In this document: piece by piece, positions 9,900 to 22,477 of the stretch
Layout of the letters: each line of letters starts with the position of its first letter
How positions within the stretch are numbered: position 1 is the first letter of the stretch
Assembly: GCA_963706025.1 (NCBI GenBank)
Contig: CAVPLM010000005.1
Location: 64,001-128,000, forward strand
Length of the DNA stretch: 64,000 nt
Origin: an uncultured Actinomycetes bacterium
GTDB taxonomy: Bacteria > Actinomycetota > Thermoleophilia > RBG-16-64-13
Direction of reading: 5' to 3'
Notes under the pieces: generated by a model
Database searches by the model: none
What the model saw: only the letters and a program-made list of their open reading frames with translations
What the model was told of the DNA's origin: nothing
Position numbers and translations under genes: made by a program

Positions 9900-10988
9900 A
9901 TGAAGACTATAGATGAGCTACTGCAGAAGGTGGTCGAGGCGGGCGCCTCCGACCTGCACCTCAAAGTGGGTAGTCCTCCGACGATCCGGGTGGACGGTGA
10001 ACTGGATGAACTCGACGAGCCGTCTTGCACACCCGAGGACACCAAGGATTACGCCGCCTCCCTCATGAGTGAGAAACAGATCCGGCGTTTCAGCGAGACC
10101 AACGAGATCGACTTCGCCTACAGCGCGCCCAGTGTCGGCCGCTACCGGATCAATGTCTACCGCCAACGAGGGACCATCTCCATCGCTTTGCGCCAGGTGG
10201 TCACCCGCGTGCCCACCTTCGCCGAACTGAACCTGCCCCCGGTGGTACAGAAGCTGTCCCTGGAGCCGCGAGGCATGGTGCTGGTGACCGGGACCACGGG
10301 CTCCGGCAAGACCACCACTCTGGCCGCCATGATCGACCACATCAACAATCGTCTGCGCAGGCACATCGTCACCATCGAGGATCCCATCGAGATCCTTCAC
10401 CAGGACCGCCGCTGCATCGTGAACCAGCGCGAGGTAGGCCTCGACACCGAGAACTACTCCTCGGCGCTCAAGTACGTGCTGCGGCAGGACCCGGACATCA
10501 TCCTCATAGGGGAGATGCGTGACCAGGAGACCGTGCGCACGGCTCTGACGGCAGCTCAGACCGGACACTTCGTCCTCAGCACCCTGCACACCATCGACGT
10601 GGCTGAGACTGTGAACCGGATCATCGACTTCTTCCCGCTCTATCAGCAGAAGCAGGTGCGCATCATGTTGGCCGGCTCACTCAGGGGCATCATCTCCCAG
10701 AGGCTGCTCGTGCGGGCGGACGGCATAGGCCGGGTCCCGGCGGTGGAAGTCATGGTCATGACGGGCCGCATCCGCGACCTGATCCTCGATCCAGGACAGA
10801 CGCACAATATCCGGACCGCCGTCCAGGAAGGCGACTTCTACGGCATGCAGACCTTCGATCAGAGCCTGCTCGGTCTGTTCGAGAGAGACATGGTCACGCT
10901 CGAGGACGCCCAACTGATGGCCACCAGTCCGCATGACTTCCGCCTGCTGGTGCAGTCACACGGTCACGAGGTACCGGTTCTGGACTAG
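9900..10988 (+). CDS. pilT: PilT/PilU family type IV pilus retraction ATPase
   Basis: ASDLHL, Walker A GTTGSGKT, TIEDPIE, LRQDPDIILIGEMRD, TGH...STLHT and GMQTFDQSL. Confidence 0.9.
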   Translation: MKTIDELLQKVVEAGASDLHLKVGSPPTIRVDGELDELDEPSCTPEDTKDYAASLMSEKQIRRFSETNEIDFAYSAPSVGRYRINVYRQRGTISIALRQVVTRVPTFAELNLPPVVQKLSLEPRGMVLVTGTTGSGKTTTLAAMIDHINNRLRRHIVTIEDPIEILHQDRRCIVNQREVGLDTENYSSALKYVLRQDPDIILIGEMRDQETVRTALTAAQTGHFVLSTLHTIDVAETVNRIIDFFPLYQQKQVRIMLAGSLRGIISQRLLVRADGIGRVPAVEVMVMTGRIRDLILDPGQTHNIRTAVQEGDFYGMQTFDQSLLGLFERDMVTLEDAQLMATSPHDFRLLVQSHGHEVPVLD

Positions 10989-10995
10989 GGTCGTT

Positions 10996-11442
10996 TCAGG
11001 TCCGGGTCCGCGACGCCTTGGCCTCGCCATCGCGCGGGGAGCGGGTATCCATCTGACCTCGCGCGGTCGCGCGCTGCTTCTCCTTGCCGCTGAAGCCCAC
11101 CAGCCAATTGATCGTGCCGGCGAGCACAGAGATGAACACCGCCATGGCCAGTACCCACGCGAAGCTGTCGGCCGAAAGTGACGCACCCACCCAAACGAAC
11201 AGTTGCAGGACGAGAGTGTTCACCAGCACTGTGAGCACGGCGCTTACGATGGCGACCACGGGTTTACTCCGCGCCCGGCGCAGCGGACGGACGAGACTGT
11301 TCAGAAAGCCCAAGAGCAAGGCCACTATCACCGCCGCCCAAACGGCCTCCACCCGGAATCTGCCGCCGGCCACCGAATCGACAAGGTAGAGCGCCAAGAA
11401 GATGGCGAGGCTGTTCGCCGTCCAGCGAAGCCAGAACTTCAC
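10996..11442 (-). CDS. 4-TM phage holin family (YvlD/DUF360-like) membrane protein
   Basis: GAGGAG RBS; GTG start overlaps the pafBC stop (GTGA); LRW.AN.LA.. and ALLLGFLN.LVRP pattern. Confidence 0.75.
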   Translation of the reverse strand: MKFWLRWTANSLAIFLALYLVDSVAGGRFRVEAVWAAVIVALLLGFLNSLVRPLRRARSKPVVAIVSAVLTVLVNTLVLQLFVWVGASLSADSFAWVLAMAVFISVLAGTINWLVGFSGKEKQRATARGQMDTRSPRDGEAKASRTRT

Positions 11443-13511
11443 GCCGTGCTCCTCGAATAGCGGCTCATGAGCAGCGCGGCGGACTCTCTGACCCGCCGGC
11501 GCGCCGAAGCAGGTCGCTCGAGGACCGCTTCTCCCAAGAAACGTATCACTTCGCGGGCGATCCATGACTCGTCGAGGTATGGGATCCGAGCGATCAGGGA
11601 GTCTTCAGGGCCGGGTTCCCAGCCGGTCCCCCGATCCTCAAGATAGGTCCGCCAGTGGGGCGCCAAGCGCACCGTTGCCCAGTGAGCCCGGCTGTCGGGC
11701 GAGAAGGCCTGTCCCTGCTGCCGCGAGACAAGATCGACCTCGGGACGCGGGGCGAAGGTATTCTCGGTGGCGTGGGCACTGCGGACGCGTTCCAGCTTGA
11801 ACGTCCGCTGGTGCCCGGCCTTCAGGCAATAGCCCTCCAGGTACCATCCGTCCGGGGAACGGAAGAGCAAGTAGGGCTCCACCTGGCGTTCGCTCAGTTC
11901 GTCTCGCGAAGCGGTGAAGTACTCCATGACGACGATCTTCCGATCGCGGATGGCGTGAGTGAGCACCTCGACGATGCGGGGGTCGGCCGGCAACACGTCG
12001 TCGACGATGATGGCTCCCTCGCGGGAACCCTCCCCGATGAGCGCAAAGACCTTTGCCCGCACGGAAGCCAGAGACTCGATGCCCTCAAGCGTGATCGCCT
12101 CACCTATGAGGTCGAGGGCAAGCAGAAGCGCGCGGGCCATGAGGGACGAGAGCCGGGCGGGCTGGCTGAACGTGTCGGCCATGACATCGCGGACGACTTC
12201 GACCCCTTCTTCGGTGGCCTCAGCGGTCAAGGCGTACGTTCCCCCCCCGAAGTTGACCAGATTGATGAGCTGAAGGTCCGCCTCGACCTCTGCCCGGGTG
12301 AGGCCCAGGTCGGTCTTCAGCGCTCTCCACGTGACTACCTCCGGCCGGCGTTCGTCGACCAGATAGTTGAGCAGCGCGATGGCCCGCGCGAGATGCTCCG
12401 GAGCGATCGGCTCGGCCTCTCCCGGTGCCACTCGGTTCGAAAGACGAGGGCGCGGGGGGCGGCCGCGAGCGGCCGCCCCCCCTTCAGCCGTGGCCTCCTC
12501 GGTCACCACCTCTGCGTGAGCCCGGCAGACATCCTCGAGGCGCCGGCGCAACTCCCCACGAAGGGACGCGGGTTCGAGCAGTTCGCCGCAGCCGCCGAGG
12601 CCGACCACCCAGGAGAGGAGGACGATCTCGTCCGCATAGGGCACGGTGAACCGCGTGTAGCCTTCACCGTCGTCGCCGAGCAAGCCAACGTGTGGCTGTA
12701 GTCTGGTGACCCACCAAGCTAGGCCCTCACTCACCTTTATGGTAGCCGTTCCCTTCACCGCGCCGAGCAGCCAAGGAGGGCGAGCCCGGTATCTTTCCGG
12801 ATCGTAGTCGGCCGGGACGGAGAAATCGCGCACCTTCTCGGTGCGAAAACGAACGATCCCCTGGATCCTGCCCACGCGGAACGTGCGGATGGCCTGGCGC
12901 TTGTGGTCGAAACCCACGACGTACCAACGACCCTGGATGAGGAAGAGGTTGTACGGCTCGAAGGTACGTTCCTCGAGGCTCCCGTCGGCGGAGGGGTAGT
13001 GGAAACACACCGTCTTGCCCCGGTTCAGCGCGTCCTCCAGTCGGGCCAACTGCCTTCCCGCCCGCTGAGCGTCTTCGTCGGGCGCGACGGCCACCGGCAG
13101 CTGTTCCAGCTGGTCCCGGATTGGGTCCGGTTTCCCATGGGAGATCGCGGTGAGGGCCAGACGCAAGGGCCTTGCATACGCGAACCGACCGTCAAGTGCC
13201 GCCAACGCTACTGCCAAAGCGCGCGACTCGGCCGGCGTGAAGTCGACGCGAGGAAGGTGGAAATCCTCCGCCGGCAAGAAATAGAGCTGGCTCTCGGCCA
13301 TCTCGGCTTCGGTGATGCCCTTGATCTCTATCCCGATCTCAGCGAGACCGGCTCGGTCGCCAAAGAAGCGCCGGGCGAAAGTATCGTCGCTCATCTCGGC
13401 ATAGCCCTCGACCGACTCCTGGATCTCACGGCTCGTGAAAGGGCGCGGTTGGCTCAGAAGAAACGAAACGAGCGACAACTGGCGTATGAGCTTGTCCTCA
13501 TCGCGACTCAT
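11439..13511 (-). CDS. pafBC: natural PafB-PafC fusion: double HTH-WYL-WCX transcriptional activator
   Basis: Two modules: KLIRQLSLV..F.GDR..L..IGI / EPY.L...GRWYVVG..RTFRVGRI, and LARAIALL..EADL.L / VEPY.L...WYLEG..RTFKLERV, each followed by a WCX-like tail. Confidence 0.85.
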   Translation of the reverse strand: MSRDEDKLIRQLSLVSFLLSQPRPFTSREIQESVEGYAEMSDDTFARRFFGDRAGLAEIGIEIKGITEAEMAESQLYFLPAEDFHLPRVDFTPAESRALAVALAALDGRFAYARPLRLALTAISHGKPDPIRDQLEQLPVAVAPDEDAQRAGRQLARLEDALNRGKTVCFHYPSADGSLEERTFEPYNLFLIQGRWYVVGFDHKRQAIRTFRVGRIQGIVRFRTEKVRDFSVPADYDPERYRARPPWLLGAVKGTATIKVSEGLAWWVTRLQPHVGLLGDDGEGYTRFTVPYADEIVLLSWVVGLGGCGELLEPASLRGELRRRLEDVCRAHAEVVTEEATAEGGAAARGRPPRPRLSNRVAPGEAEPIAPEHLARAIALLNYLVDERRPEVVTWRALKTDLGLTRAEVEADLQLINLVNFGGGTYALTAEATEEGVEVVRDVMADTFSQPARLSSLMARALLLALDLIGEAITLEGIESLASVRAKVFALIGEGSREGAIIVDDVLPADPRIVEVLTHAIRDRKIVVMEYFTASRDELSERQVEPYLLFRSPDGWYLEGYCLKAGHQRTFKLERVRSAHATENTFAPRPEVDLVSRQQGQAFSPDSRAHWATVRLAPHWRTYLEDRGTGWEPGPEDSLIARIPYLDESWIAREVIRFLGEAVLERPASARRRVRESAALLMSRYSRSTA

Positions 13512-13517
13512 GCCGTA

Positions 13518-13523
13518 AGACTA
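13518..13523 (-). promoter_or_regulatory. -10 element of a probably leaderless pafBC transcript
   Basis: Minus-strand TAGTCT 6 nt before the ATG at 13511; no RBS. Confidence 0.5.
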
Positions 13524-13551
13524 GCGCAGAAGTGCCAGGCGGGTCAGCACC

Positions 13552-13573
13552 CGTCCGGGTCGGGCTCTACAAT
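13552..13573 (+). promoter_or_regulatory. candidate PafBC-dependent promoter for addBA
   Basis: CGTCCG-N10-TACAAT compared with the mycobacterial TGTCGG-N10-TANNNT: 4/6 match with exact spacing; no canonical -35 seen. Confidence 0.5.
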
Positions 13574-13583
13574 GGTGGGCAGC

Positions 13584-16559
13584 ATGGAGCGATCACCGGA
13601 CAACAGTAGTGCGGAGGCTGGGCCGGGGCTCACCCTTGTCCTCGGTCCTCCGAATTCGGGCAAGATGGGCTACGCTCTTGAGTGGTGGCGGGAGAGGCTC
13701 CCCTTCAGTCCGGTCGCGGTGGCGCCCACCGTGCCCGATGCCCAGGAACTCACCGTCGAAATGGTCCGGCGCGTGGGCGCCCTCGTCGGGCAATCGCCTG
13801 CACTTACGTTCGACGGCCTGGTACGCACCATCATCGGACGGCCTTTGCAGCCCCCGGGGGAGTTCCAGCGCGCTCTCATCATGGGCCGGATCCTACGAGA
13901 AACACCCCTACGCTCGCTGAGCGGGATGGCTTCGATGCCGGGGGCCGTCGCTACGCTCGCGAGGTTGCTGCAGCAGCTGGGCGAGAGCGGTAGAGGCCCG
14001 GACGACCTGTACGGCATCCTGAGCCTTTGGGCAGGGGAAGAGCCGGGTGCGGCCGGATTGGCCGCGGATATCCGGCATCTCCACGAAGCGTATGTTGCTG
14101 CCTGTGCCACCTGGGGCCTGACCGACCGCCCGGCGGCAGCTCGGGAGGCTGTGGTTCGGGCAGCCGGCTGGACCAGGCCCTTGGTACTGTACGGGTTCAC
14201 GTCCTTCACCACCGTGCAGCGGAGTCTCGTCGAGACGCTGTCCAGGGATGCCCAGATCCTGGTCACGCTACCCCATGAGCCGACCCGACCCACCAATCTC
14301 AGCACCTCCTCCGAGGTCGCGGGATGGAGGGCGATCGCCGCCGAGGTGGTCGAACTGCCCCTGCAGATCCGGGCTTACTCTTCGCCGGTGATCGCCTATC
14401 TCGAGCGCCACTTCATGACCGATCTGCCTCTGCCCGAGCCCCCTCCGCCGTCGTCGGGTCCGCAGGGGGTGCGTTTCCTGCTCGCCTCCGGACAGCGGAA
14501 CGAAGCCGAACTGGTCGCCCAGCATATCTCCGGTCTCATACGCGAAGGCTTCAGGCCGGGAGATATCGCCGTCGTCGTCCGTCGGTTGCGGACCTGGAGC
14601 AGCCTGCTCAGGCAGGTGTTCGAGTCGTGTGGCATCCCGTATCGGATCGATGACACCCGCACGCTGGGAGAGACCGGGCTTGGTCACGCGCTTCTGAGCA
14701 TTCTGCGCGGGGTGCTGAGCGATGATGCGGAAGCGATCTTGGCCTACCTTCGCAGCCCCTACAGCGGGCTGACGCCGGAGATGGTCGCCGATCTAGAACT
14801 GCGATACAGGCGAGGGACGCGCTATGGGGCCAGGGTGGTGGCGGATATCGGAGAGGAACTGTGCCCGGGATCGCTCGCTCCCCTTTGGGCGATCATCACG
14901 GCTGATCCCGACCTGACGGGTATCGACCCGGCTGGACTGGAAGATGTGTGCCGGCGGATGCTGGAAGCAAGCATCCAACTGGGGATGGCGGGCGATCAGG
15001 AGCTGGAAGAAGAGGCCCGCGCCTTCCGAGCCTTGGTCGGAGCAGCGAAGGCCATGCGCGGACTGGTCGGCAGTGGCGACGGCGCGGCCCGGCTCGAGGC
15101 CGAGTTGGTGCTTCACGTACTTGCCGGAGTCCCGATTCCGGGTAGCCGGAGCGAGGATACGGACGCGGTGCAGGTCCTCAGCGTTCAGCGAGCGCGGGCT
15201 CGTCGCTTCGCCGTGGTCGCAGTGTTGGGACTGACGGAAGGGGAGTTCCCGGGACACTCCGACCCTCCGTCCCTGCTCACCCCGGCCCAACGGGCCCGTC
15301 TCGATTCGTTGGGAGGCGGAGGTCTCTTCGTCCCTGAGACGAACCAGGAGGCCGCTCTTTTCGTGAGCGCCCTCTCTCGGGCCTGGCAGCTGCTGCTTCT
15401 GAGCGCGCGGGACGCGGATGACGGCGGCGGAGAAGTCCTGCCCTCCCGGTTCTGGTCGTTGTCGAAAGAGCTGCTGGGGGTGGCCGATCGTGACAACGAG
15501 ACGCGTACCCTGGCCGAGGTGGTGTTCGGAGTGGAGGCGGCCCCGTCGCTCAGACACTACCTGCGCGCATGCGCGGCTCAGGGTTGCTCTCCCCACCCGG
15601 GCGTCTGGCCCGACGCGGACCGCAGACGAGCGCGCGCGTGGCGGCGCGCCCCGGCGCGCCTCACCGAGCAGGTGATCCTCGATGAGTTGGCGGCGACCGT
15701 GAGCTTCGCCCCGTCGTCTCTGGAGGCGTACCTCACCTGTCCCTTCGCTTGGTTCGTGGATCGGGTGATCGGGGTCGAGGAGCTGGAACCGGAGCTGGAC
15801 GCGCGGTCCACGGGGCAGTTGCTCCACAGCGTTCTCAGCCTCACCTATCAAGAGCTGGCCTCCCGTGATGCGCTGCCGCTCTGCCCGGAGGGCGTCGCGG
15901 AAGCGGAACTCCTGGCCTTTGCGGCTATCGAACGCCTTGTGGGGGACGACGGATGCCCCGGGACTGCCGCAGAGAAGCGTTTGGCCGTGTGGAGACTCAA
16001 GAGGATGGTCCGGCACCTTTTTCAGATGGAGAGTGCCGCGGCGGGCGCGCTGGTCATGGTGGAGACGGAGTCGGCCATCGGTGGTCGAGAGGGGGTCGAT
16101 ATCGGGGGACTCAGGATCAGGGGGCGCATCGACCGGATCGACGCCGATCCTCAGGGACGAGCTCTCTTCGTGCTCGACTACAAGAGCGGGACGGTCGCCG
16201 AGTTCTCCAGCCTTGGGACCGAACGGGCCCTACAGCTGCCTCTGTACCTGATGGCACTGGCTGCGGAGCGGCCGGAGGCGCAGGTCATCGGCGGGGCCTA
16301 TCTTTCTCCTCTCCAGAAGCGGCGCTCGGGCTTGGTCTATGCCGGCTCCGAAGACCTCCTGGGCGCGGGGAGGCAAGGTTGTCGGGTGGTCGACCCGGTG
16401 GACTTGGAGAGGCTGTTCGGAGAGACCCGCGCCCTCGCGTGCGCTGCGGCGGCAGGCATGCGCGCCGGCGCGATAGCGCCGCGCCTCGAACGCGATTGCC
16501 CGCCCTGGTGCGGAATGGGACCCGTCTGCCGCGCCCGTCCGGGAGGGTACCGATCGTGA
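13584..16559 (+). CDS. addB: AddB/AdnA-like helicase-nuclease subunit
   Basis: Walker A-like GPPNSGK, degenerate helicase body, PD-(D/E)xK nuclease RGRIDRID..LDYKSG..QLPLY, and Cys pattern YLTCPF..CPPWC..VC. Confidence 0.82.
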   Translation: MERSPDNSSAEAGPGLTLVLGPPNSGKMGYALEWWRERLPFSPVAVAPTVPDAQELTVEMVRRVGALVGQSPALTFDGLVRTIIGRPLQPPGEFQRALIMGRILRETPLRSLSGMASMPGAVATLARLLQQLGESGRGPDDLYGILSLWAGEEPGAAGLAADIRHLHEAYVAACATWGLTDRPAAAREAVVRAAGWTRPLVLYGFTSFTTVQRSLVETLSRDAQILVTLPHEPTRPTNLSTSSEVAGWRAIAAEVVELPLQIRAYSSPVIAYLERHFMTDLPLPEPPPPSSGPQGVRFLLASGQRNEAELVAQHISGLIREGFRPGDIAVVVRRLRTWSSLLRQVFESCGIPYRIDDTRTLGETGLGHALLSILRGVLSDDAEAILAYLRSPYSGLTPEMVADLELRYRRGTRYGARVVADIGEELCPGSLAPLWAIITADPDLTGIDPAGLEDVCRRMLEASIQLGMAGDQELEEEARAFRALVGAAKAMRGLVGSGDGAARLEAELVLHVLAGVPIPGSRSEDTDAVQVLSVQRARARRFAVVAVLGLTEGEFPGHSDPPSLLTPAQRARLDSLGGGGLFVPETNQEAALFVSALSRAWQLLLLSARDADDGGGEVLPSRFWSLSKELLGVADRDNETRTLAEVVFGVEAAPSLRHYLRACAAQGCSPHPGVWPDADRRRARAWRRAPARLTEQVILDELAATVSFAPSSLEAYLTCPFAWFVDRVIGVEELEPELDARSTGQLLHSVLSLTYQELASRDALPLCPEGVAEAELLAFAAIERLVGDDGCPGTAAEKRLAVWRLKRMVRHLFQMESAAAGALVMVETESAIGGREGVDIGGLRIRGRIDRIDADPQGRALFVLDYKSGTVAEFSSLGTERALQLPLYLMALAAERPEAQVIGGAYLSPLQKRRSGLVYAGSEDLLGAGRQGCRVVDPVDLERLFGETRALACAAAAGMRAGAIAPRLERDCPPWCGMGPVCRARPGGYRS

Positions 16560-19500
16560 GGACGACCGCGGACATGGCGTTGTCGGACGTTCAAGAAGCA
16601 GCGGCGTTCGACACCAACGAGCGGGTCCTCGTGGCGGCCGGCGCAGGGAGCGGAAAGACTCGACTGCTGGTGGCGTGCTTCGTCCGTGCCTTGGTCGACG
16701 AGGGTCTGCCGCCGGAGCGCTTGGTAGCCGTGACCTTCACGCGGAAGGCCGCCGCCGAACTGATGACCCGCATCCGGGGGCGACTGCAAGATCTCGGGCA
16801 CCCCGGCCTAGCCCTTGCCCTGGACGCGGCCACCGTCGGTACCATCCACAGCCTCTGCGCGGGGCTGCTGCGGGAGCGTCCCCTTGAGGCCGGAGTCGAC
16901 CCAGCCTTCTCCATCCTCGAGGCCGAGGCGGCAGCTCTGGTCAAACGGGAAGTACGCGACAAGGTCTGGGATCAGGCCGTCGAGGGAGCAGAAGAGGCGG
17001 AGTTGGATGTCCTCGGCTCCCACAGTGGACTCCTGCGGGAGGAAGTCGTCTCTCTGTACGAGCGACTGCGCGGCGCCGGGCAGGAGCGACCGCGGTTGAT
17101 GATCCCGCCGGGCAGGCCGGCGGAGCACGCCCGCACGGCGCTCGCGGAGGCCGTCCGCGAAGCCTTGAGCGCCGGATCGGCGGTGTCTCGCCGGTCGATC
17201 TCTCTGGAATCCGACCTGGCGGTATTGGAGAAGTGCCTCTCCTGGATAGACGACCCGGACCCGGCGCTCGATCCAGAAGATCAGTTGCGTTTGAGCGAGA
17301 GCTTCTTTCCAAGCAGGAAGACGTCGTCCGTGGAGCCCTATTTCGAGCCGGTCAGAGCAGCCCTCACCATCTATAGGTGCTCTCTTGCCGAGCATCAGCT
17401 TCGACCGGTCGTCGCGGCAGTGAACGATCTGCTCGCTCGTTTCCACCGGGCCTACGAAGCCTACAAGCGGGAACGGAGCCTGCTGGACTTCACCGACCTG
17501 GAATTGCGCGCCCGGGCCCTGCTCCGCGAGGAGGGGGGATCGGCAGCGGAGGCCGATGCGCCGGGCCCACGGGTCATGATCGACGAATTCCAGGACACCA
17601 ACGAACTGCAGTGTTCGATACTCGAAGGGCTCGGAGCTTCGAGACTGCTCATGGTCGGAGATGAACGCCAGAGCATCTACCGTTTTCGGGGGGCCGATGT
17701 CGAAGTGTTCAGGCGCAGAGAAGCCGAGTTCGAACTCCAGGGCGGGCACAACAAGGGGCCGAGCGGTTCCATCCATCGGCTGGTCGTCAACTACCGCAGT
17801 CGCGCCGAAATACTGGCTTTCATCAACCGGCTGTTCGCAGACGAGCGCTTCTTCGGTTCCCGGTTCGTCGCCCTCGGGTATGGCCGCGACGACCATGGCC
17901 GAGACGAGCATGACTGCGACGGACACGGCCGCGACAGGCCGAGCGTCGGCGGTGCTGCGGATCCTGGACTCGGACGTCCGCCGGTGGCCGTCGAGGTCCT
18001 GGCGGTGGAGCGTTTGGAGAAACCCGGGCCCGATGCGCGGTCGCGTCTCATGCAGGAGGCTGAGGCGCAGGCCGTCGCCTCGTGTGTCCGGCGGCTGCTG
18101 GACGAAGAGCGCTGGGAGCCCCGCGAGATCGTGGTGCTGACCCCGGCTCAGACGCACGTCGATCTGTACCAGCAGGCTCTCCTGGACCGCGGGGTGGAGG
18201 TGTACGTCGTAGGGGGCAAGGGCTACTACGGCAGGGATGAAATAGCCGATCTGACGGCGTTGCTGAGGCTACTGGTCAATCCCCATGACGATCTGGGGCT
18301 GGTCACGGTCCTGAGGTCGCCGATAGTCGGGTTATCCGACGATGGTCTTTACCTGCTCGGAAGCGAGGCCCGCGCGAGGAGGGCCCGATCCCTCTGGGAG
18401 GTGGTCCGCGAGGGAGCGATCCCCGGTATCGGTGAAGCCGATCGGGAGCTCCTCTTCGATTTCGTGGCGCGACTCATGGTTCTCAGGCGCCGGGTCGGGA
18501 GGCCGGGGCTGGCCCGACTGATCGACGATGCGGTGAGCGACTGCGGCTACGATGTCTGTCTCCTCACCTCGACCGAGGGGAGGCGCCGGTTCGCCAATGT
18601 GCGCAAGCTGATGCGCATCGCCGACGACTATGAAGCCCTGCGGGGCCCCGACTTGGCCGGCTTCGTAAGCGCCATCGAGTCCATGGGCGACCTCAGCGAC
18701 AAGGAAGGCAGCGCTCCTACTTTGGCCGAGGGAGAGAACGTGGTGCGGGTGATGACCGTCCACCAAGCCAAGGGTCTCGAATTCCCGGTAGTCGTCCTGG
18801 CCGGTCTCGGTTCGGACGTGCCCCGGGGTAGCCGTCCTCGCTTCGCTTTGAGCGGCGACGGACGCATGGGGGTCTTCCTCAAGGGCTCCGGGCACAAGAC
18901 GTACGAGTCGGGTGATCTCAGCTGGGGTCCGGCCGCCGAGATAGTCGCTGAGGAGACAGCCAAGGAACGGGAGGAAGACGTCCGCCTGCTGTACGTGGCC
19001 ATGACCCGGGCGGAGGAGCGACTCGTGCTCGTGGGAGCCAAGCCGGTTGGGAAAGGACTGGACGGTTGCCGCATAGGTCGCATAGCCATGGCCCTGGGCT
19101 TCGACACGCTGCCCGGAGTGGACACGACCGTACCCGTCGAAGGACTCGACGCGATCGTGGTCGGCGCGACCGCTTCTGCCGCGGAAACCGAGGGGAGGCA
19201 TGGTGCAGGAGCCGAGCGGGAGCAGGCGCTTTCAGCCGGACCAGGCCGGCAGGAAGCGCAGGAACCTCCGGGTCCCTGTCCCAGTTTCGTGGAATGCGCG
19301 TCCCGGGGAGCCAGTCCGCGGCAAGTCAGCTTCTCCGCACTCGCTCTCTACCTGCGTTGTCCGAGGCGGTTCTATTTGGAGAGGTTGCTGGGTCTCCAGC
19401 TCGATCCGGTCGGAACGCCTGTTTCCTCTGGAACGAGGTCTAGCCGGTATGGGGAGGAGCCAGACAGCGGGCCGGAGACTCCTTCCGCAGAAGAGGAACT

Positions 19501-20170
19501 GATCGACGAAGGGGAGACCCAGTCCGGTCGCACCGTCGGCCTCATCGTCCACGCGTTACTCGAACGACATGCGCTCGACGAGGAGTGCCCGGCCCCCGAT
19601 CTCCTTCGCCTGGAGGCGGCCGACTCGGCTCAGCAGGTGGCCGCCGATGTCTGCCTCTCGGAGGCCGACCAGGAGCGCGCCCTCTCCCTGACCCAGGCTT
19701 TCTGGCGTTCGCCCTTCCCGAGAGATCAAGCCCTTGCCCGTGCTACCCGGGAGACGTCGTTCGTGTTCACCCTGGACGACACCATCGTGTCCGGGGTGAT
19801 GGACCTGATGTGGCTGGACGAGGGCGTCTGCCACATCGTGGACTACAAGACCAACGCCCTCGATGGGCGCGCGCTCGCCGAGGTGGCCGCCGGCTATGAG
19901 CTACAGGGAGCCGTCTATGCTCTGGCCGCGCTCCGAGCGGGTGCCGAGGCCGTGCTGATGCACTTCTTGTTCCTGGAACGGCCGGAGGCCCCCGTAAGCC
20001 GATCGTTCGATCGGGGCGATGAGCCACGCCTGGAGTCCATGCTCGAACAAGTGCTTGGCCGGATGAGGCAGGGTGACTTCGCCGCGCAGCCTGGAGGAGA
20101 TTGCCCTCGCTGCTCGGTCGGGACGCTCTGTGCAGGAATGGCCGGCTCCATCGGTCATGGTATACAATAG
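16556..20170 (+). CDS. addA: AddA/AdnB-like UvrD helicase-nuclease subunit
   Basis: GTGA overlap with addB; AGAGSGKT, VTFT.KAA, IDEFQDTN, VGDERQSIYRFRGA, NYRS, MTVHQAKGLEF, LYVAMTRA; C-terminal nuclease GVMDL..VDYKT. Confidence 0.9.
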   Translation: MRTTADMALSDVQEAAAFDTNERVLVAAGAGSGKTRLLVACFVRALVDEGLPPERLVAVTFTRKAAAELMTRIRGRLQDLGHPGLALALDAATVGTIHSLCAGLLRERPLEAGVDPAFSILEAEAAALVKREVRDKVWDQAVEGAEEAELDVLGSHSGLLREEVVSLYERLRGAGQERPRLMIPPGRPAEHARTALAEAVREALSAGSAVSRRSISLESDLAVLEKCLSWIDDPDPALDPEDQLRLSESFFPSRKTSSVEPYFEPVRAALTIYRCSLAEHQLRPVVAAVNDLLARFHRAYEAYKRERSLLDFTDLELRARALLREEGGSAAEADAPGPRVMIDEFQDTNELQCSILEGLGASRLLMVGDERQSIYRFRGADVEVFRRREAEFELQGGHNKGPSGSIHRLVVNYRSRAEILAFINRLFADERFFGSRFVALGYGRDDHGRDEHDCDGHGRDRPSVGGAADPGLGRPPVAVEVLAVERLEKPGPDARSRLMQEAEAQAVASCVRRLLDEERWEPREIVVLTPAQTHVDLYQQALLDRGVEVYVVGGKGYYGRDEIADLTALLRLLVNPHDDLGLVTVLRSPIVGLSDDGLYLLGSEARARRARSLWEVVREGAIPGIGEADRELLFDFVARLMVLRRRVGRPGLARLIDDAVSDCGYDVCLLTSTEGRRRFANVRKLMRIADDYEALRGPDLAGFVSAIESMGDLSDKEGSAPTLAEGENVVRVMTVHQAKGLEFPVVVLAGLGSDVPRGSRPRFALSGDGRMGVFLKGSGHKTYESGDLSWGPAAEIVAEETAKEREEDVRLLYVAMTRAEERLVLVGAKPVGKGLDGCRIGRIAMALGFDTLPGVDTTVPVEGLDAIVVGATASAAETEGRHGAGAEREQALSAGPGRQEAQEPPGPCPSFVECASRGASPRQVSFSALALYLRCPRRFYLERLLGLQLDPVGTPVSSGTRSSRYGEEPDSGPETPSAEEELIDEGETQSGRTVGLIVHALLERHALDEECPAPDLLRLEAADSAQQVAADVCLSEADQERALSLTQAFWRSPFPRDQALARATRETSFVFTLDDTIVSGVMDLMWLDEGVCHIVDYKTNALDGRALAEVAAGYELQGAVYALAALRAGAEAVLMHFLFLERPEAPVSRSFDRGDEPRLESMLEQVLGRMRQGDFAAQPGGDCPRCSVGTLCAGMAGSIGHGIQ

Positions 20171-20201
20171 GCGACCGCGCCAGGGCGGGAACGCATGAGG
20201 G

Positions 20202-20278
20202 CGGGGTGTAGCGCAGCCTGGTAGCGCGCATCGTTCGGGACGATGAGGTCCCGGGTTCAAATCCCGGCACCCCGACCA
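20202..20278 (+). tRNA. tRNA-Pro(CGG)
   Basis: CGGGGTG/CACCCCG acceptor, anticodon arm CATCG-TTCGGGA-CGATG, GGTTCAAATCC, encoded CCA. Confidence 0.96.
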
Positions 20279-20280
20279 TG

Positions 20281-20318
20281 GACAGCAATGAGCCGCGATC
20301 GCGGCTCTCTGTCTTTCT
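20281..20318 (+). terminator. hairpin terminator after tRNA-Pro
   Basis: Perfect 18-nt palindrome GAGCCGCGATCGCGGCTC (20290-20307) with outer GACAG/CTGTC pairing, then TTTCT. Confidence 0.6.
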
Positions 20319-20380
20319 GGTGGCTCCCGCCGGAGGCTCGCCGTCGCGTAGGCGGCCCGTCCTCGCGCAGAGAGCCCGCG

Positions 20381-21598
20381 CTAGGGATTCTGCACGTAGA
20401 TGACCACGAGGACGTGTCCTCCGGCCTCGTCCGGCGGTACCCACTCGACGCCATCTTCCTGGTCCCCAGAGGGAAGCAAGGTGGAGGTCGTGAAGTTCCA
20501 GTTCATGACGGCGGGTTGAGGGGCCCTGTCGGCGGCAAGCACACAAAGGTCTCTCTTGTTTTCGAGCAGGCGGGCATTGGCCTCGGCAGCTCCTGCCGGC
20601 GGCGCCACGATCAGGCCGACTACGAGCCCTACGGAGGTTGCTATGGAGCGCACCAGGTCGACCAACTCCTCTGCGTCTTCCCGGGGAAGGTAAGCCGCGA
20701 ACGTCGGGCCTCCCAGCCAGAGGCTTGCATCCAATGGCGTCAGCCCTGTGAAAGTGGTGATCTGAGAAGCGACGTCCTCCACTTGCTTGGCGGAGACCAC
20801 TCCAGTCTCGTCACCGGCCGAGGTCTCGCTGGTGGACTCGGTAGCGGTCGAGCTGACCTCAGTGGATCCAGAGTCGTCAGACTGCTCCGGGGCGGCAGCC
20901 ATGAAGGCAAGGTACGCGGGAGCCTCGGCGTCGCCAAGCTCGGCGACCATGGCCTTCTTGTCCACCGTGAACACGGGCTCGGCGAGTCCTGACGCCGCCA
21001 TGGGGACAGTAGACTCCGTGCCACCCGCGGCAACGTCCGTCGCCGTCGTGGTCGCCGCGGCCGCCGTGGTGCTGGTGGCGCTGAGCGTCGCCTCCCGGGT
21101 AGTGTTGTCGGACGCCTGTTCCGCGGCCGCGACGGGCTGGGAGGTATCCCCACCCTCTGTGGAGAGGTCGTTGCCCGACCGGACCACTCCGTACCCTATT
21201 ACTGCCGCCAAGAGCGCGACCACCGCGATGGTGGCGGGAATCCAGGGTCTGATCCTTTTGTTCCACGTGGCCGACCAGCCTTTCGGCTCTTCCTTTCGCG
21301 GCGCAGCTACCGGCTGAGAGGGGAACAAGACCTCGCCGAGTACTCGATCCTCGAGATCGATCGGGGGGTCGTCGAGATAGGTCTCTTGCAGGAAGGTGAC
21401 CACGCTCTGCTGGGTGCGCAGGCGGGCGGCGCATTCGGGGCATTCTCGGAGGTGGCTCTGGATCGCGGCCTTGGCTTCGGGAGCCGCTCGCCCGTCCAGA
21501 TAGTCGACGGCCAGTTCGGCCCACTCATCCAGGTGGCCGGAAGGCACGGGCATAGACGCCCGTCCGTGACCGTCTTTTTCGTTGCCCCTTGACATCAT
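20381..21598 (-). CDS. zinc-binding (ZAS) transmembrane anti-sigma factor
   Basis: YLDG...HLRECPEC (HxxxCxxC), a single TM helix, and a Ser/Thr/Ala-rich extracellular domain; coupled to the sigma gene. Confidence 0.85.
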   Translation of the reverse strand: MMSRGNEKDGHGRASMPVPSGHLDEWAELAVDYLDGRAAPEAKAAIQSHLRECPECAARLRTQQSVVTFLQETYLDDPPIDLEDRVLGEVLFPSQPVAAPRKEEPKGWSATWNKRIRPWIPATIAVVALLAAVIGYGVVRSGNDLSTEGGDTSQPVAAAEQASDNTTREATLSATSTTAAAATTTATDVAAGGTESTVPMAASGLAEPVFTVDKKAMVAELGDAEAPAYLAFMAAAPEQSDDSGSTEVSSTATESTSETSAGDETGVVSAKQVEDVASQITTFTGLTPLDASLWLGGPTFAAYLPREDAEELVDLVRSIATSVGLVVGLIVAPPAGAAEANARLLENKRDLCVLAADRAPQPAVMNWNFTTSTLLPSGDQEDGVEWVPPDEAGGHVLVVIYVQNP

Positions 21599-22251
21599 CC
21601 ATCTTCCCCTATTGTGCCCTGTCGTGTGACGCCGTCCCCATGCCCGGGGTTCCGTGCGCCCGGCAAGTCATAACCGGCCTCGATCAAGGCGGCAGCAAGC
21701 GCCTCGCGAGCTCGAAAGATGCGGGACTTGATGGTCCCTTCTTGCACACCCAGGATCTCGGCGGCCTCGTTGTAAGGGAAGCCCAGTAGGTCACAGAGCA
21801 CCACGGCGAAACGGAAGCCTTCGTTCAGACTCATTAATGCTTGACGGAGGGGATCGGATAGGCCGTCGAGTGCCGGATCGGTGCCTTGCCGGCCCGATCC
21901 CACGACAGCCCCGGATCCGGATGGGCTGGAGAGATCAGCGATGATCTCGGCGTCCATCGGCTCCGGTCTCTGGCGACGAAGGTGATCGTAAGCCGCGTTC
22001 ACCACGATGCGATGCAACCAGGTGGTGAAACGCGCTTCTCCCTTGAAGGAATCCAGGCTCCGAAAGGCCTTGATGAAGGCTTCCTGAGAAACGTCGGCCG
22101 CATCCCAGGGATTTCCCAGCGTGCGCAAAGCCAGGTTGTATACGCGGCGCTCATGGCGCCGGTAGAGCTCGGTCACGGCGTCGCTATCGCCTTCACGGGC
22201 GCGTTGGACAAGATGGGCGTCCGCATCCCGCACTTGTTCGATCGCACTCAA
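21595..22251 (-). CDS. ECF sigma-70 factor (start TTG 22251 probable)
   Basis: D..LV..A..GD..A..ELY.RH, DAADVSQEAF, F.TWL.RI..N, and region 4 EAAEILGVQEGTIKSRIFRAR. Confidence 0.92.
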   Translation of the reverse strand: MSAIEQVRDADAHLVQRAREGDSDAVTELYRRHERRVYNLALRTLGNPWDAADVSQEAFIKAFRSLDSFKGEARFTTWLHRIVVNAAYDHLRRQRPEPMDAEIIADLSSPSGSGAVVGSGRQGTDPALDGLSDPLRQALMSLNEGFRFAVVLCDLLGFPYNEAAEILGVQEGTIKSRIFRAREALAAALIEAGYDLPGARNPGHGDGVTRQGTIGEDG

Positions 22252-22477
22252 GCTGACTCTGGACTCCTCTGGCTCGAATCGGCCTGTATGACCTCTCATT
22301 CTAACAGCGCCGTCGCCGCAAAGGCCCCGGTGCTCGAGTGCCTTAAGCGCCCCTGCGTCCTCGGCGCCGGCGGACTCCCTGCCCTACGGGACTCGCGCAG
22401 CCTTCGCGCCAGAGAGCCCTCGTCGCTATGGTAACGTCGATCGGGAACGATATCGGTGCAAGGAGGTGACGGTACCC

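Follow-up and report, generated by a model that had tools for sequence, protein, structure and literature searches.

Why should the gene for a transcription factor that senses single-stranded DNA (ssDNA) stand back to back with the genes for an enzyme that makes ssDNA? The question is raised by a locus in a 64,000-nucleotide stretch of an uncultured Actinomycetes bacterium of the class Thermoleophilia (assembly GCA_963706025.1, contig CAVPLM010000005.1, positions 64,001 to 128,000 of the forward strand; hereafter the window). Here, a fused gene for a PafBC-type regulator and a gene pair for an AddAB-type helicase-nuclease point away from each other. We consider it likely that the locus is a PafBC DNA-damage circuit of an actinobacterial class without the Pup ligase, in which the regulator and one of its targets are encoded back to back. 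The genome was assembled from a metagenome (3.66 Mb in 30 contigs, 92.3% complete, 7.3% contamination). Papers are cited by PMC number. The features of the locus, in window coordinates, are:

10996..11442, minus strand: membrane protein of family PF04020, 148 aa (Pfam E 4.8e-11, 43.6 bits against a cut-off of 28.8)
11439..13511, minus strand: fused PafBC, 690 aa, with a PafB-like half (wHTH-WYL-WCX), a linker and a PafC-like half (HTH_PafC-WYL-WCX), from Pfam and Protein Data Bank (PDB) alignments
13518..13523, minus strand: putative -10 hexamer TAGTCT of the pafBC promoter, 6 nt before the ATG (a conserved block)
13542..13547, minus strand: putative -35-like hexamer CTGACC of the pafBC promoter (a conserved GGTCA block on the plus strand)
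13552..13557, plus strand: PafBC-type -26 element CGTCCG of the predicted addB promoter (family consensus YGTCCGG), from conservation and the register of the published motif
13568..13573, plus strand: predicted -10 hexamer TACAAT of the addB promoter, conserved in orthologous regions
13584 (or 13572)..16559, plus strand: AddB-like subunit, 991 aa (PDDEXK_1 E 3.9e-34; 3U44_B)
16556 (GTG) or 16574 (ATG)..20170, plus strand: AddA-like subunit (UvrD-helicase, UvrD_C, PDDEXK_1; 3U44_A)

The open reading frame (ORF) coordinates, re-checked in the window, give a divergent pair of two-gene units, with pafBC and the PF04020 gene running leftwards and addB-addA rightwards. The pafBC ATG ends at 13511 and ATG codons in the addB frame lie at 13572 and 13584, leaving 60-72 bp between the start codons. 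The GTG start of the PF04020 gene overlaps the TGA stop of pafBC (GTGA), indicating translational coupling of the two genes; a longer reading from ATG 11565 is possible and would overlap pafBC. The GTG 16556 start option for addA would also overlap the TGA of addB (GTGA). A first-pass annotation, made from the letters alone, had described this four-gene architecture, with a single-chain PafBC bearing two WYL domains, an AddB-AddA pair and a head-to-head spacing of about 70 bp. The ORFs, the spacing and the domains found by hidden Markov model searches bear out that description.

We identified two WYL domains (E 1.4e-39), two WCX domains (E 4.4e-21) and, in the second half of the protein, an HTH_PafC domain (E 1.8e-9), all above the Pfam cut-offs. 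An alignment with the fused PafBC of Arthrobacter (PDB entry 6SJ9) runs the length of the chain (residues 12-676 of 690; phmmer E 2.9e-29). When its halves are compared with the Mycobacterium smegmatis proteins of 7P5X, PafC matches residues 376-687 (E 2.8e-22) and PafB residues 7-221 (E 3.1e-18). This is the sole WYL-bearing gene of the genome. Fusion of PafB and PafC occurs naturally in several actinobacteria (PMC6789036). By our reading of the table for the family of the window's genome (f1), about 14 genomes have a one-ORF, fused pafBC and nine have two ORFs. The two ORFs are adjacent or overlapping (G001, G005, G006, G008, G010, G012, G014, G022 and G023), and some of these cases may be assembly frameshifts.

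The residues of the M. smegmatis PafB WYL domain that are required for ssDNA binding are R181, Y196, R204, R208, R211 and R214 (PMC11804915). Their aligned counterparts here, R182, Y197, R205, R209, R212 and R215, are all kept, and R182, Y197, R205, R209 and R215 are invariant across 20 PafBC sequences of the class. In the same M. smegmatis protein, the GTC triplet of the promoter element is read by two arginines of HTH-B, R46 and R50 (PMC8635444). The counterpart of R46 is R47, which is invariant in the 20 sequences, as are the nearby R48 and R53; R50 falls on a glycine (G51).

The region between the two genes was aligned for 21 orthologous loci, and three conserved blocks stand out in otherwise diverged sequence. 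On the pafBC strand, CTGACC is followed after 18 nt by TAGTCT and after a further 6 nt by the ATG; the -10 block (TAAGACTAGCGCA) is conserved in the 21 regions. This points to a sigma-A-type promoter, and because the -10 lies only 6 nt before the ATG, a leaderless mRNA is implied. On the other strand, the predicted addB promoter reads CGTCCG-N10-TACAAT (13552-13573), with no -35-like hexamer at 17±1 nt. The PafBC motif determined in vivo in mycobacteria is tGTCgg(N10)tA(N3)T, with its 5' part at -23 to -28, its 3' part equal to the sigma-A -10, and no -35 (PMC8635444). The register of the addB element is identical to that of the published motif.

We ran a strict pattern (YGTCCG or YATCCG, N9-10, TAnnnT) on 23 orthologous regions, and 22 matched, two of them with N9; the one miss (L019) reads CGTCCT. 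The expectation by chance, taken from the genome-wide frequency, is about 0.004 per 420 nt. A start codon lies 6-12 nt past the -10 in all 22 motif-bearing regions; thus, the addB mRNA is probably leaderless or nearly so, and ATG 13584 is favoured as the start (ATG 13572 overlaps the -10). A looser form of the box, sought on both strands, was found in none of 48 regions upstream of pafBC in other Thermoleophilia. A strict sigma-70 scan (9-of-12 rule) returned no promoter in 10800-20400, and both proposed promoters fall short of that rule. An RNA library (X20) and another that may be RNA (X19) gave short contigs that match pafBC, addB and addA (depth 2-7, 90-99% alike). From contigs one can read neither starts nor strand, level or induction, and such libraries may contain DNA; nothing is drawn from them.

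The position of the box between two divergent promoters allows PafBC to be cast as a repressor of addBA, of its own gene or of both, released by ssDNA in the manner of CapW and BrxR. A gap of 4 bp separates the box, at about -41 to -46 relative to the pafBC start, from the -35-like hexamer of pafBC, so occupation of the box could affect the pafBC promoter, and WYL repressors that sense ssDNA do exist (PMC11662680). However, the addB promoter has a good -10 and no -35, with the box in the exact register of activator-dependent PafBC promoters. The protein aligns over its whole length with PafB and PafC. Where the spacer is longer, the box keeps a constant distance to addB and not to pafBC, and so moves with addB and away from pafBC. 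Repression is improbable on this evidence. An activator role at addB is the reading that we follow, and it is conceivable that box-bound PafBC also autoregulates pafBC.

The enzyme on the other side of the box is well described by the label AddAB. In AddB, an N-terminal P-loop (GPPNSGKM) is followed by a degenerate helicase-like body and, at the C-terminus, by a PD-(D/E)XK nuclease set within cysteines of the pattern C...CxxCx5C. Beside its PDDEXK_1 match, UvrD_C is below the cut-off and there is no UvrD-helicase match; the sole PDB match is Bacillus subtilis AddB (3U44_B, E 2.7e-10). AddA combines an SF1 UvrD-type motor (UvrD-helicase E 8.7e-50, and UvrD_C) with a C-terminal PDDEXK_1 nuclease. 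The letters GSGKT and DYK in its translation are, we take it, the P-loop and a nuclease motif. Its best PDB match is B. subtilis AddA (3U44_A, E 1.4e-62), and mycobacterial AdnB (6PPU_B) is far weaker (5.2e-24).

We use the label AddAB because the best solved relatives are the two B. subtilis subunits and AdnB is a much weaker match. An identity as AdnAB, in which both subunits have complete UvrD-type motors, was rejected, since the first subunit is without a UvrD-helicase match (UvrD_C being sub-cut-off) and AdnB is a much poorer match to AddA than is B. subtilis AddA. Among the NCBIfam equivalog models compared (addA_Gpos, addA_alphas, addB_Gpos and addB_alphas), the best for AddA is addA_Gpos (E 3.8e-96; 323 bits against an equivalog cut-off of 707.65) and the best for AddB is addB_Gpos (72 bits against 903.7). 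By these scores the enzyme belongs to a divergent lineage and is not an equivalog of the curated subfamilies. No RecC was found in the genome, and PDDEXK_1 matches AddB and AddA only; AddAB is the only recognizable break-resecting helicase-nuclease of the genome. The nuclease of AddA (about 19650-20150) is flanked by the same C...CxxCx5C cysteine pattern as that of AddB, and both subunits might hold an iron-sulfur staple. In B. subtilis AddAB, the staple is known from AddB only.

How far does the arrangement reach? The coordinates of PafBC and AddB were compared in 41 relatives, sampled from seven families of Thermoleophilia (f1 to f7), and PafBC is present in all 41. In f1, 23 of 24 genomes have the two genes head to head on a single contig; in the remaining genome (76% complete), PafBC is a fragment at the start of a contig and AddB gave no match. 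They are also head to head in 3/3 genomes of f6, across a gap of 345-650 bp with a small ORF. Two of these loci (L029 and L034) have a conserved basic ORF of about 48 aa between the PafBC-type promoter and addB. In f4, f5 and f7 (three, two and one genomes), pafBC and addB are on different contigs or 177 kb apart, and in f2 and f3 (four and three genomes) the AddB query used gave no match.

In a species-representative collection with 594 confirmed PafBC loci, the order AddA-AddB, PafBC, PF04020 was found in eight of the best 80 and not in the other 72; some of the eight are genomes also in the family comparison. No AddA or AddB similarity was found within about 7 kb at 14 loci from other families of the phylum, ten of them from Pup-less families. 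The divergon is strongly conserved in f1 and occurs in f6 as well; it is neither class-wide nor phylum-wide. The adjacency reported in the first-pass annotation is therefore kept in relatives, within f1 and f6, and does not extend to f4, f5, f7 or the 14 loci elsewhere in the phylum.

A PafBC tree (FastTree, LG+gamma, without support values) was built from 45 sequences: 23 labelled by family, 20 hand-picked from the 80 loci and two outgroups, one of them a 336-aa partial sequence. It places f1 and L043 on one branch and f6 with f3 on another. On the question of ancestry, which the first-pass annotation had raised, its topology is compatible both with a single origin followed by losses and with two origins, and it was not used to choose. 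Contigs of two DNA sequencing runs, X1 and X3 (sediment and freshwater metagenomes from different studies), cover all 30 bins of 10900-20300, mostly 90-99% alike. Thus, close relatives occur in such habitats, and X1 or X3 may be the source sample.

The first-pass annotation had called the module self-contained. A scan of the genome for further boxes does not sustain that part of the proposal. The scan used a weight matrix trained on 18 orthologous addB sites, with the window's own site excluded, and is over-fitted to the addB spacer. The window's addB site scores 34.2 bits and is the top of the genome; the second site (20.1 bits) lies 105 nt upstream of rpsF-ssb-rpsR. Of 30 relatives, 22 carry the box no more than 1.5 kb ahead of ssb, two of three f6 genomes among them (about 0.06 expected per locus), and 18 of the 22 matches lie at -429 to -560.

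The third site concerns recA. This gene is the archetypal PafBC target. In all three f6 genomes, TGTCCG-N10-TATAAT lies 93-97 nt before the recA start, and a close variant is at -104 in one f3 genome. No box was found in the immediate recA upstream region in f1, and in the window's genome the 118 nt directly upstream of recA have neither TAnnnT nor the box, leaving a site inside pgsA as the sole candidate. This site, CTGTCCG...GCTATGGT, lies 0.9-1.1 kb upstream of recA in 21 of 23 f1 loci and precedes a 2',5'-ligase-like gene (thpR-like), which is followed by recA. In a peptide-anchored comparison, the codons of the box and -10 (Leu, Ser and second Ala) are CTG, TCC and GCT in 21/21 loci. The codon in the spacer (first Ala) takes all four third bases, and the surrounding third positions take two to four. 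Invariant synonymous positions of this kind point to selection on the nucleotide sequence itself, and we suggest that pgsA contains an internal promoter driving recA.

These sites bear on the possibility that PafBC is a dedicated regulator of its divergent neighbour only, a self-contained local module like those of many WYL regulators. The addB site is by far the best of the genome (34.2 against 20.1 bits), the matrix finds no genome-wide enrichment, and no other WYL protein is encoded. Published accounts also have SiwR controlling adjacent genes, and BrxR and CapW tied to defence or immune systems. Against such confinement are the box upstream of rpsF-ssb in 22/30 relatives, the recA-upstream box of f6 and f3, and the one within pgsA in 21/23 f1 loci with its invariant synonymous positions; in addition, five families of the class have PafBC without an adjoining AddAB. 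We give a purely local regulator little credence. The conservation of the same box at rpsF-ssb and recA implies that PafBC has several targets, and PafBC is probably a damage activator with a small regulon, of which addBA is the neighbouring target. The link that had been drawn between sensor and resection stands in that the adjacency is conserved and a PafBC-type -26/-10 promoter directly precedes addB; the self-containment does not.

Several observations weigh against the reading of the locus as a PafBC circuit. The GTC-reading R50 aligns with G51 here, in a column that is variable in the class, and the box is assigned to PafBC by analogy with the mycobacterial motif. In six genomes in which addB lies apart from pafBC, the GTCCG box is in 0/6 addB upstream regions, with two weak ATCCG variants. 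The recA-upstream site of f1 sits in coding sequence. The matrix scan gives no genome-wide excess (17 matches at a score of at least 12, against 15, 23, 9 and 13 in spacing-shifted controls), and the plain pattern has about a two-fold excess at N10 only (31 against 8-19 at other spacings). With genome-wide enrichment this weak, we consider three conserved sites defensible and do not claim a large regulon. The relatives are non-independent samples. Finally, the assembly has 92% completeness and 7% contamination; one 1.2-Mb contig carries the divergon together with recA and lexA, and rpsF-ssb is on another.

Some of these points would also suit a GTCCG element read by another factor or by a sigma variant, with the adjacency reflecting conserved gene order only: the equivalent of R50 is absent, and the addB promoters of non-adjacent lineages are without the box. 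The element nevertheless agrees with the published PafBC motif in its GTC core, its distance to a sigma-A-type -10 and the missing -35. The genes that it accompanies (recA, ssb and those of a resection nuclease) are of the kinds found in the mycobacterial regulon (PMC8223512), and PafBC is encoded in 41/41 of the relatives searched. A different reader of the box is therefore very improbable, and we retain PafBC in that role.

Lower-ranked pattern matches near genes for a UvrD-like helicase, a Pfam-less cysteine-rich ORF, and nrdJ-like, macro-domain and Sua5-like proteins were not counted as sites. At C5:1045454 (L117), TGTCCG-N10-TACTCT lies 6 nt before an ORF without a Pfam match, whose N-terminal cysteine motif recalls RecB-family nucleases and whose second half looks like an out-of-frame translation. 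The contig ends at C8:50 and C22:7541 share upstream sequence and the N-terminus of a UvrD-like helicase, for which redundancy or the 7% contamination are possible reasons. Three identical 28-nt stretches (C1:30122, C8:152411 and C29:34216) lie 21 nt before near-identical 168-aa ORFs and represent a repeated element.

LexA and RecA are both encoded in the genome. The SOS-type pattern GAAC-N4-GTTC is not enriched in it (62 matches, against 37-100 at other spacings). Strong palindromes were found at C5:453780, C5:907138 and 907172, C5:722774 and C5:221316, one of which precedes lexA. We read only these, at lexA and three other places, as LexA sites. The double palindrome precedes an ORF of about 1080 aa, from which a 617-aa ORF diverges, and this may be an SOS mutagenesis cassette. 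No LexA-type palindrome was found near addBA, ssb or recA in this genome.

Lacking are genes of the Pup-proteasome system. The first-pass annotation had remarked on the absence of pafA, pup and proteasome genes from the window, and the absence extends further. The whole 3.66-Mb genome, which is incomplete, has no match to Pup ligase (PF03136), proteasome (PF00227) or Pup (PF05639), and for Mpa/ARC (TIGR03689) there is a generic AAA+ match only, at 157.8 bits where the cut-off is 504.75. None of 151 Thermoleophilia genomes (137 of high quality) gave a Pup ligase match, and a Corynebacterium control did. In 201 genomes of the phylum, Pup ligase is present in 110 and a PafBC-like match (E <= 1e-15) in 130; these tallies include eight unpublished genomes, on which no separate claim rests. 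Outside the class, families f15, f26, f29 and f33 (10 genomes) have a PafBC-like gene in every genome and Pup ligase in none. Where both occur, the two genes are within a few kb of each other (e.g., G184, G212 and G226), in agreement with a review that describes pafBC as tightly associated with the Pup-proteasome locus (PMC8223512).

The gene architecture, the conserved adjacency, the conservation and register of the promoter element, the retained ssDNA-binding residues and the absence of Pup ligase from the class sample suggest to us how such a circuit could operate. We predict that pafBC and the PF04020 gene are transcribed leftwards from an ordinary, probably constitutive, sigma-A promoter that gives a leaderless mRNA. 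Upon damage, ssDNA would bind the WYL domains of PafBC. The activated protein would dock on the YGTCCG element near -26 of the addB promoter and replace the missing -35 contact ("sigma adaptation"), activating rather than repressing. Expression of addB-addA, encoding the only recognizable break-resecting helicase-nuclease of the genome, would thereby be switched on. The same box would drive rpsF-ssb and, via the internal promoter, recA, forming a small regulon beyond the neighbouring genes. Resection by AddAB would yield more ssDNA, and the loop could reinforce itself until the break is repaired.

Published work on mycobacteria supplies several of these steps, among them the ones on which the first-pass annotation had relied. 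In M. smegmatis, adnA is described as "exclusively controlled" by PafBC, and its induction is lost in a pafC mutant of Mycobacterium tuberculosis (PMC8682763); thus, a loop of the same logic is present in mycobacteria. PafBC is activated by ssDNA (PMC11804915), and PafBC levels are unchanged on damage in mycobacteria (PMC6789036, PMC8223512). Pupylation afterwards removes RecA and other proteins of the mycobacterial regulon (PMC8223512). Positive feedback at the locus studied here would be a logical consequence of the arrangement.

A bolder version can be imagined, which we regard as rather unlikely. PafBC would first have been a stand-alone break sensor wired to resection, before pupylation. 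The divergon would act as a bistable ssDNA switch that raises AddAB, SSB and RecA together, and bound PafBC would tune its own synthesis through the geometry of the box relative to the pafBC -35. The co-translated PF04020 protein would couple the response to the envelope or cell division.

The PF04020 protein has three to four hydrophobic segments. Its family, formerly a DUF, is named "Phage_holin_4_2", and the protein is without a match to PHROG or PADLOC families. A homologue lies directly downstream of pafBC throughout f1, in 17 of the 30 loci L006-L035 overall, and also in L036-L043. Its context is cellular, as the second gene of the pafBC operon across f1, with no phage genes or lysis partner to go with it. 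For this protein, "holin" is a family name only.

Domain-level PADLOC matches, for WYL and for a UvrD-type GajB, raise the question of whether this is a WYL-regulated anti-phage defence island with the helicase-nuclease as effector, and WYL regulators do often flank defence systems (PMC9122601). The enzyme, though, has the two-subunit architecture of AddAB with B. subtilis AddA and AddB as its best solved relatives, and is the only one of its kind in the genome. The locus is stable in 23/24 genomes of the family rather than variable, its neighbours are housekeeping genes, and the membrane protein has no phage family match. We rejected the defence reading on these grounds (AddAB architecture, 23/24 conservation, housekeeping neighbours and no PHROG match) and consider it extremely improbable.

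Genes flanking the divergon on both sides are unrelated (NlpC/P60, deacetylase, PilT-like ATPase and an ECF sigma/anti-sigma pair). A tRNA-Pro (CGG) lies at 20202-20278 on the plus strand, 32 bp past the addA stop, followed by a GC-rich hairpin with a T-rich tail at 20290-20307. Read depth jumps at this tRNA in all four sequencing runs compared, as expected for a conserved tRNA. Just past it, on the minus strand at 20381-22299, are genes for the ECF sigma factor and its zf-HC2 anti-sigma factor, for which no relation to the divergon was seen.

Already known are fused PafBC, the PafBC motif, ssDNA sensing and the control of a resection nuclease by PafBC. In the open-access literature we found no record of pafBC/addAB adjacency, of PafBC in Thermoleophilia, Gaiellales, Gaiella or Solirubrobacter (among the matches listed), or of the distribution of PafBC outside the Pup locus. 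New within that literature are the pafBC/addBA divergon, whose head-to-head order is conserved and whose two promoters share about 60 bp; PafBC-type promoters in a deep-branching class with Pup ligase in 0/151 genomes; and the loss of the R50 equivalent with GTC kept. The published comparison of promoters and residues spans 14 species (Fig. 3, PMC8635444). Replacement of R50 while the GTC is retained bears on how the box is read. To our knowledge, none of those 14 species is from a deep-branching class.

A class that has PafBC and PafBC-type promoters but no Pup ligase in 151 genomes argues that PafBC and "sigma adaptation" promoters are independent of pupylation. The promoter pair, in about 60 bp, offers a compact system for work in vitro. 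Current understanding is extended by these findings and not overturned.

The closest known system is the mycobacterial PafBC regulon (the RecA-NDp or PafBC promoters), whose targets include recA, adnAB and recBCD. Alike are the two wHTH-WYL-WCX modules, the retained ssDNA-binding arginines and WYL tyrosine, the GTC element about 10 nt upstream of a sigma-A -10 without a -35, and the presence of a resecting helicase-nuclease and recA among the targets. Unlike mycobacterial PafBC, which is encoded in the Pup-proteasome locus, the protein here is encoded outside one, in a class sample without Pup ligase; the locus gave PafBC its name, and is a matter of gene context rather than of function. It is one chain, and its target is AddAB (not AdnAB) and immediately head to head. 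The box is GTCCG here and GTCgg there, and R50 has no conserved equivalent. We found three conserved sites, whereas about 150 genes are reported for PafBC of M. smegmatis (PMC8635444).

The fused PafBC proteins of Arthrobacter aurescens (6SJ9), Kocuria and Thermobifida are likewise single chains of PafB, linker and PafC, although sequence similarity to 6SJ9 is low. The PafBC homologues in the set of PMC6789036 were cross-checked for association with the Pup-proteasome locus.

DriD of Caulobacter is also an ssDNA-activated WYL activator of an SOS-independent damage response (PMC9186387). To its authors, resection by AddAB is a likely origin of the ssDNA, and they pose its role as an open question (PMC9186387). 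The pairing of an ssDNA sensor with an ssDNA-making enzyme described here adds genomic support on that question, whether AddAB-type resection supplies the ligand. DriD differs in being a homodimer with one WYL domain per chain and in its operator, and no adjacency to addAB is described in the available text of that paper (PMC9186387).

B. subtilis AddAB (3U44, 4CEH) resembles the enzyme here in its AddA, with a UvrD motor and a RecB-type nuclease, and in its AddB, where the motor is degenerate and four cysteines flank the nuclease. Both subunits here are far below the NCBI equivalog cut-offs, and AddA, too, has the C...CxxCx5C pattern. We know of no description of a WYL activator regulating AddAB in Bacillus.

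SiwR, BrxR and CapW are single-WYL homodimers. As we propose for PafBC at this locus, they are described as encoded beside the genes under their control and as reacting to genotoxic stress or to ssDNA. In these accounts, SiwR activates the genes adjacent to it, and CapW acts as a repressor and belongs with an immune system. Set against these, the PafBC described here has the double module of the PafB/PafC type, a promoter of the activator type before addB, and further conserved sites elsewhere in the genome.

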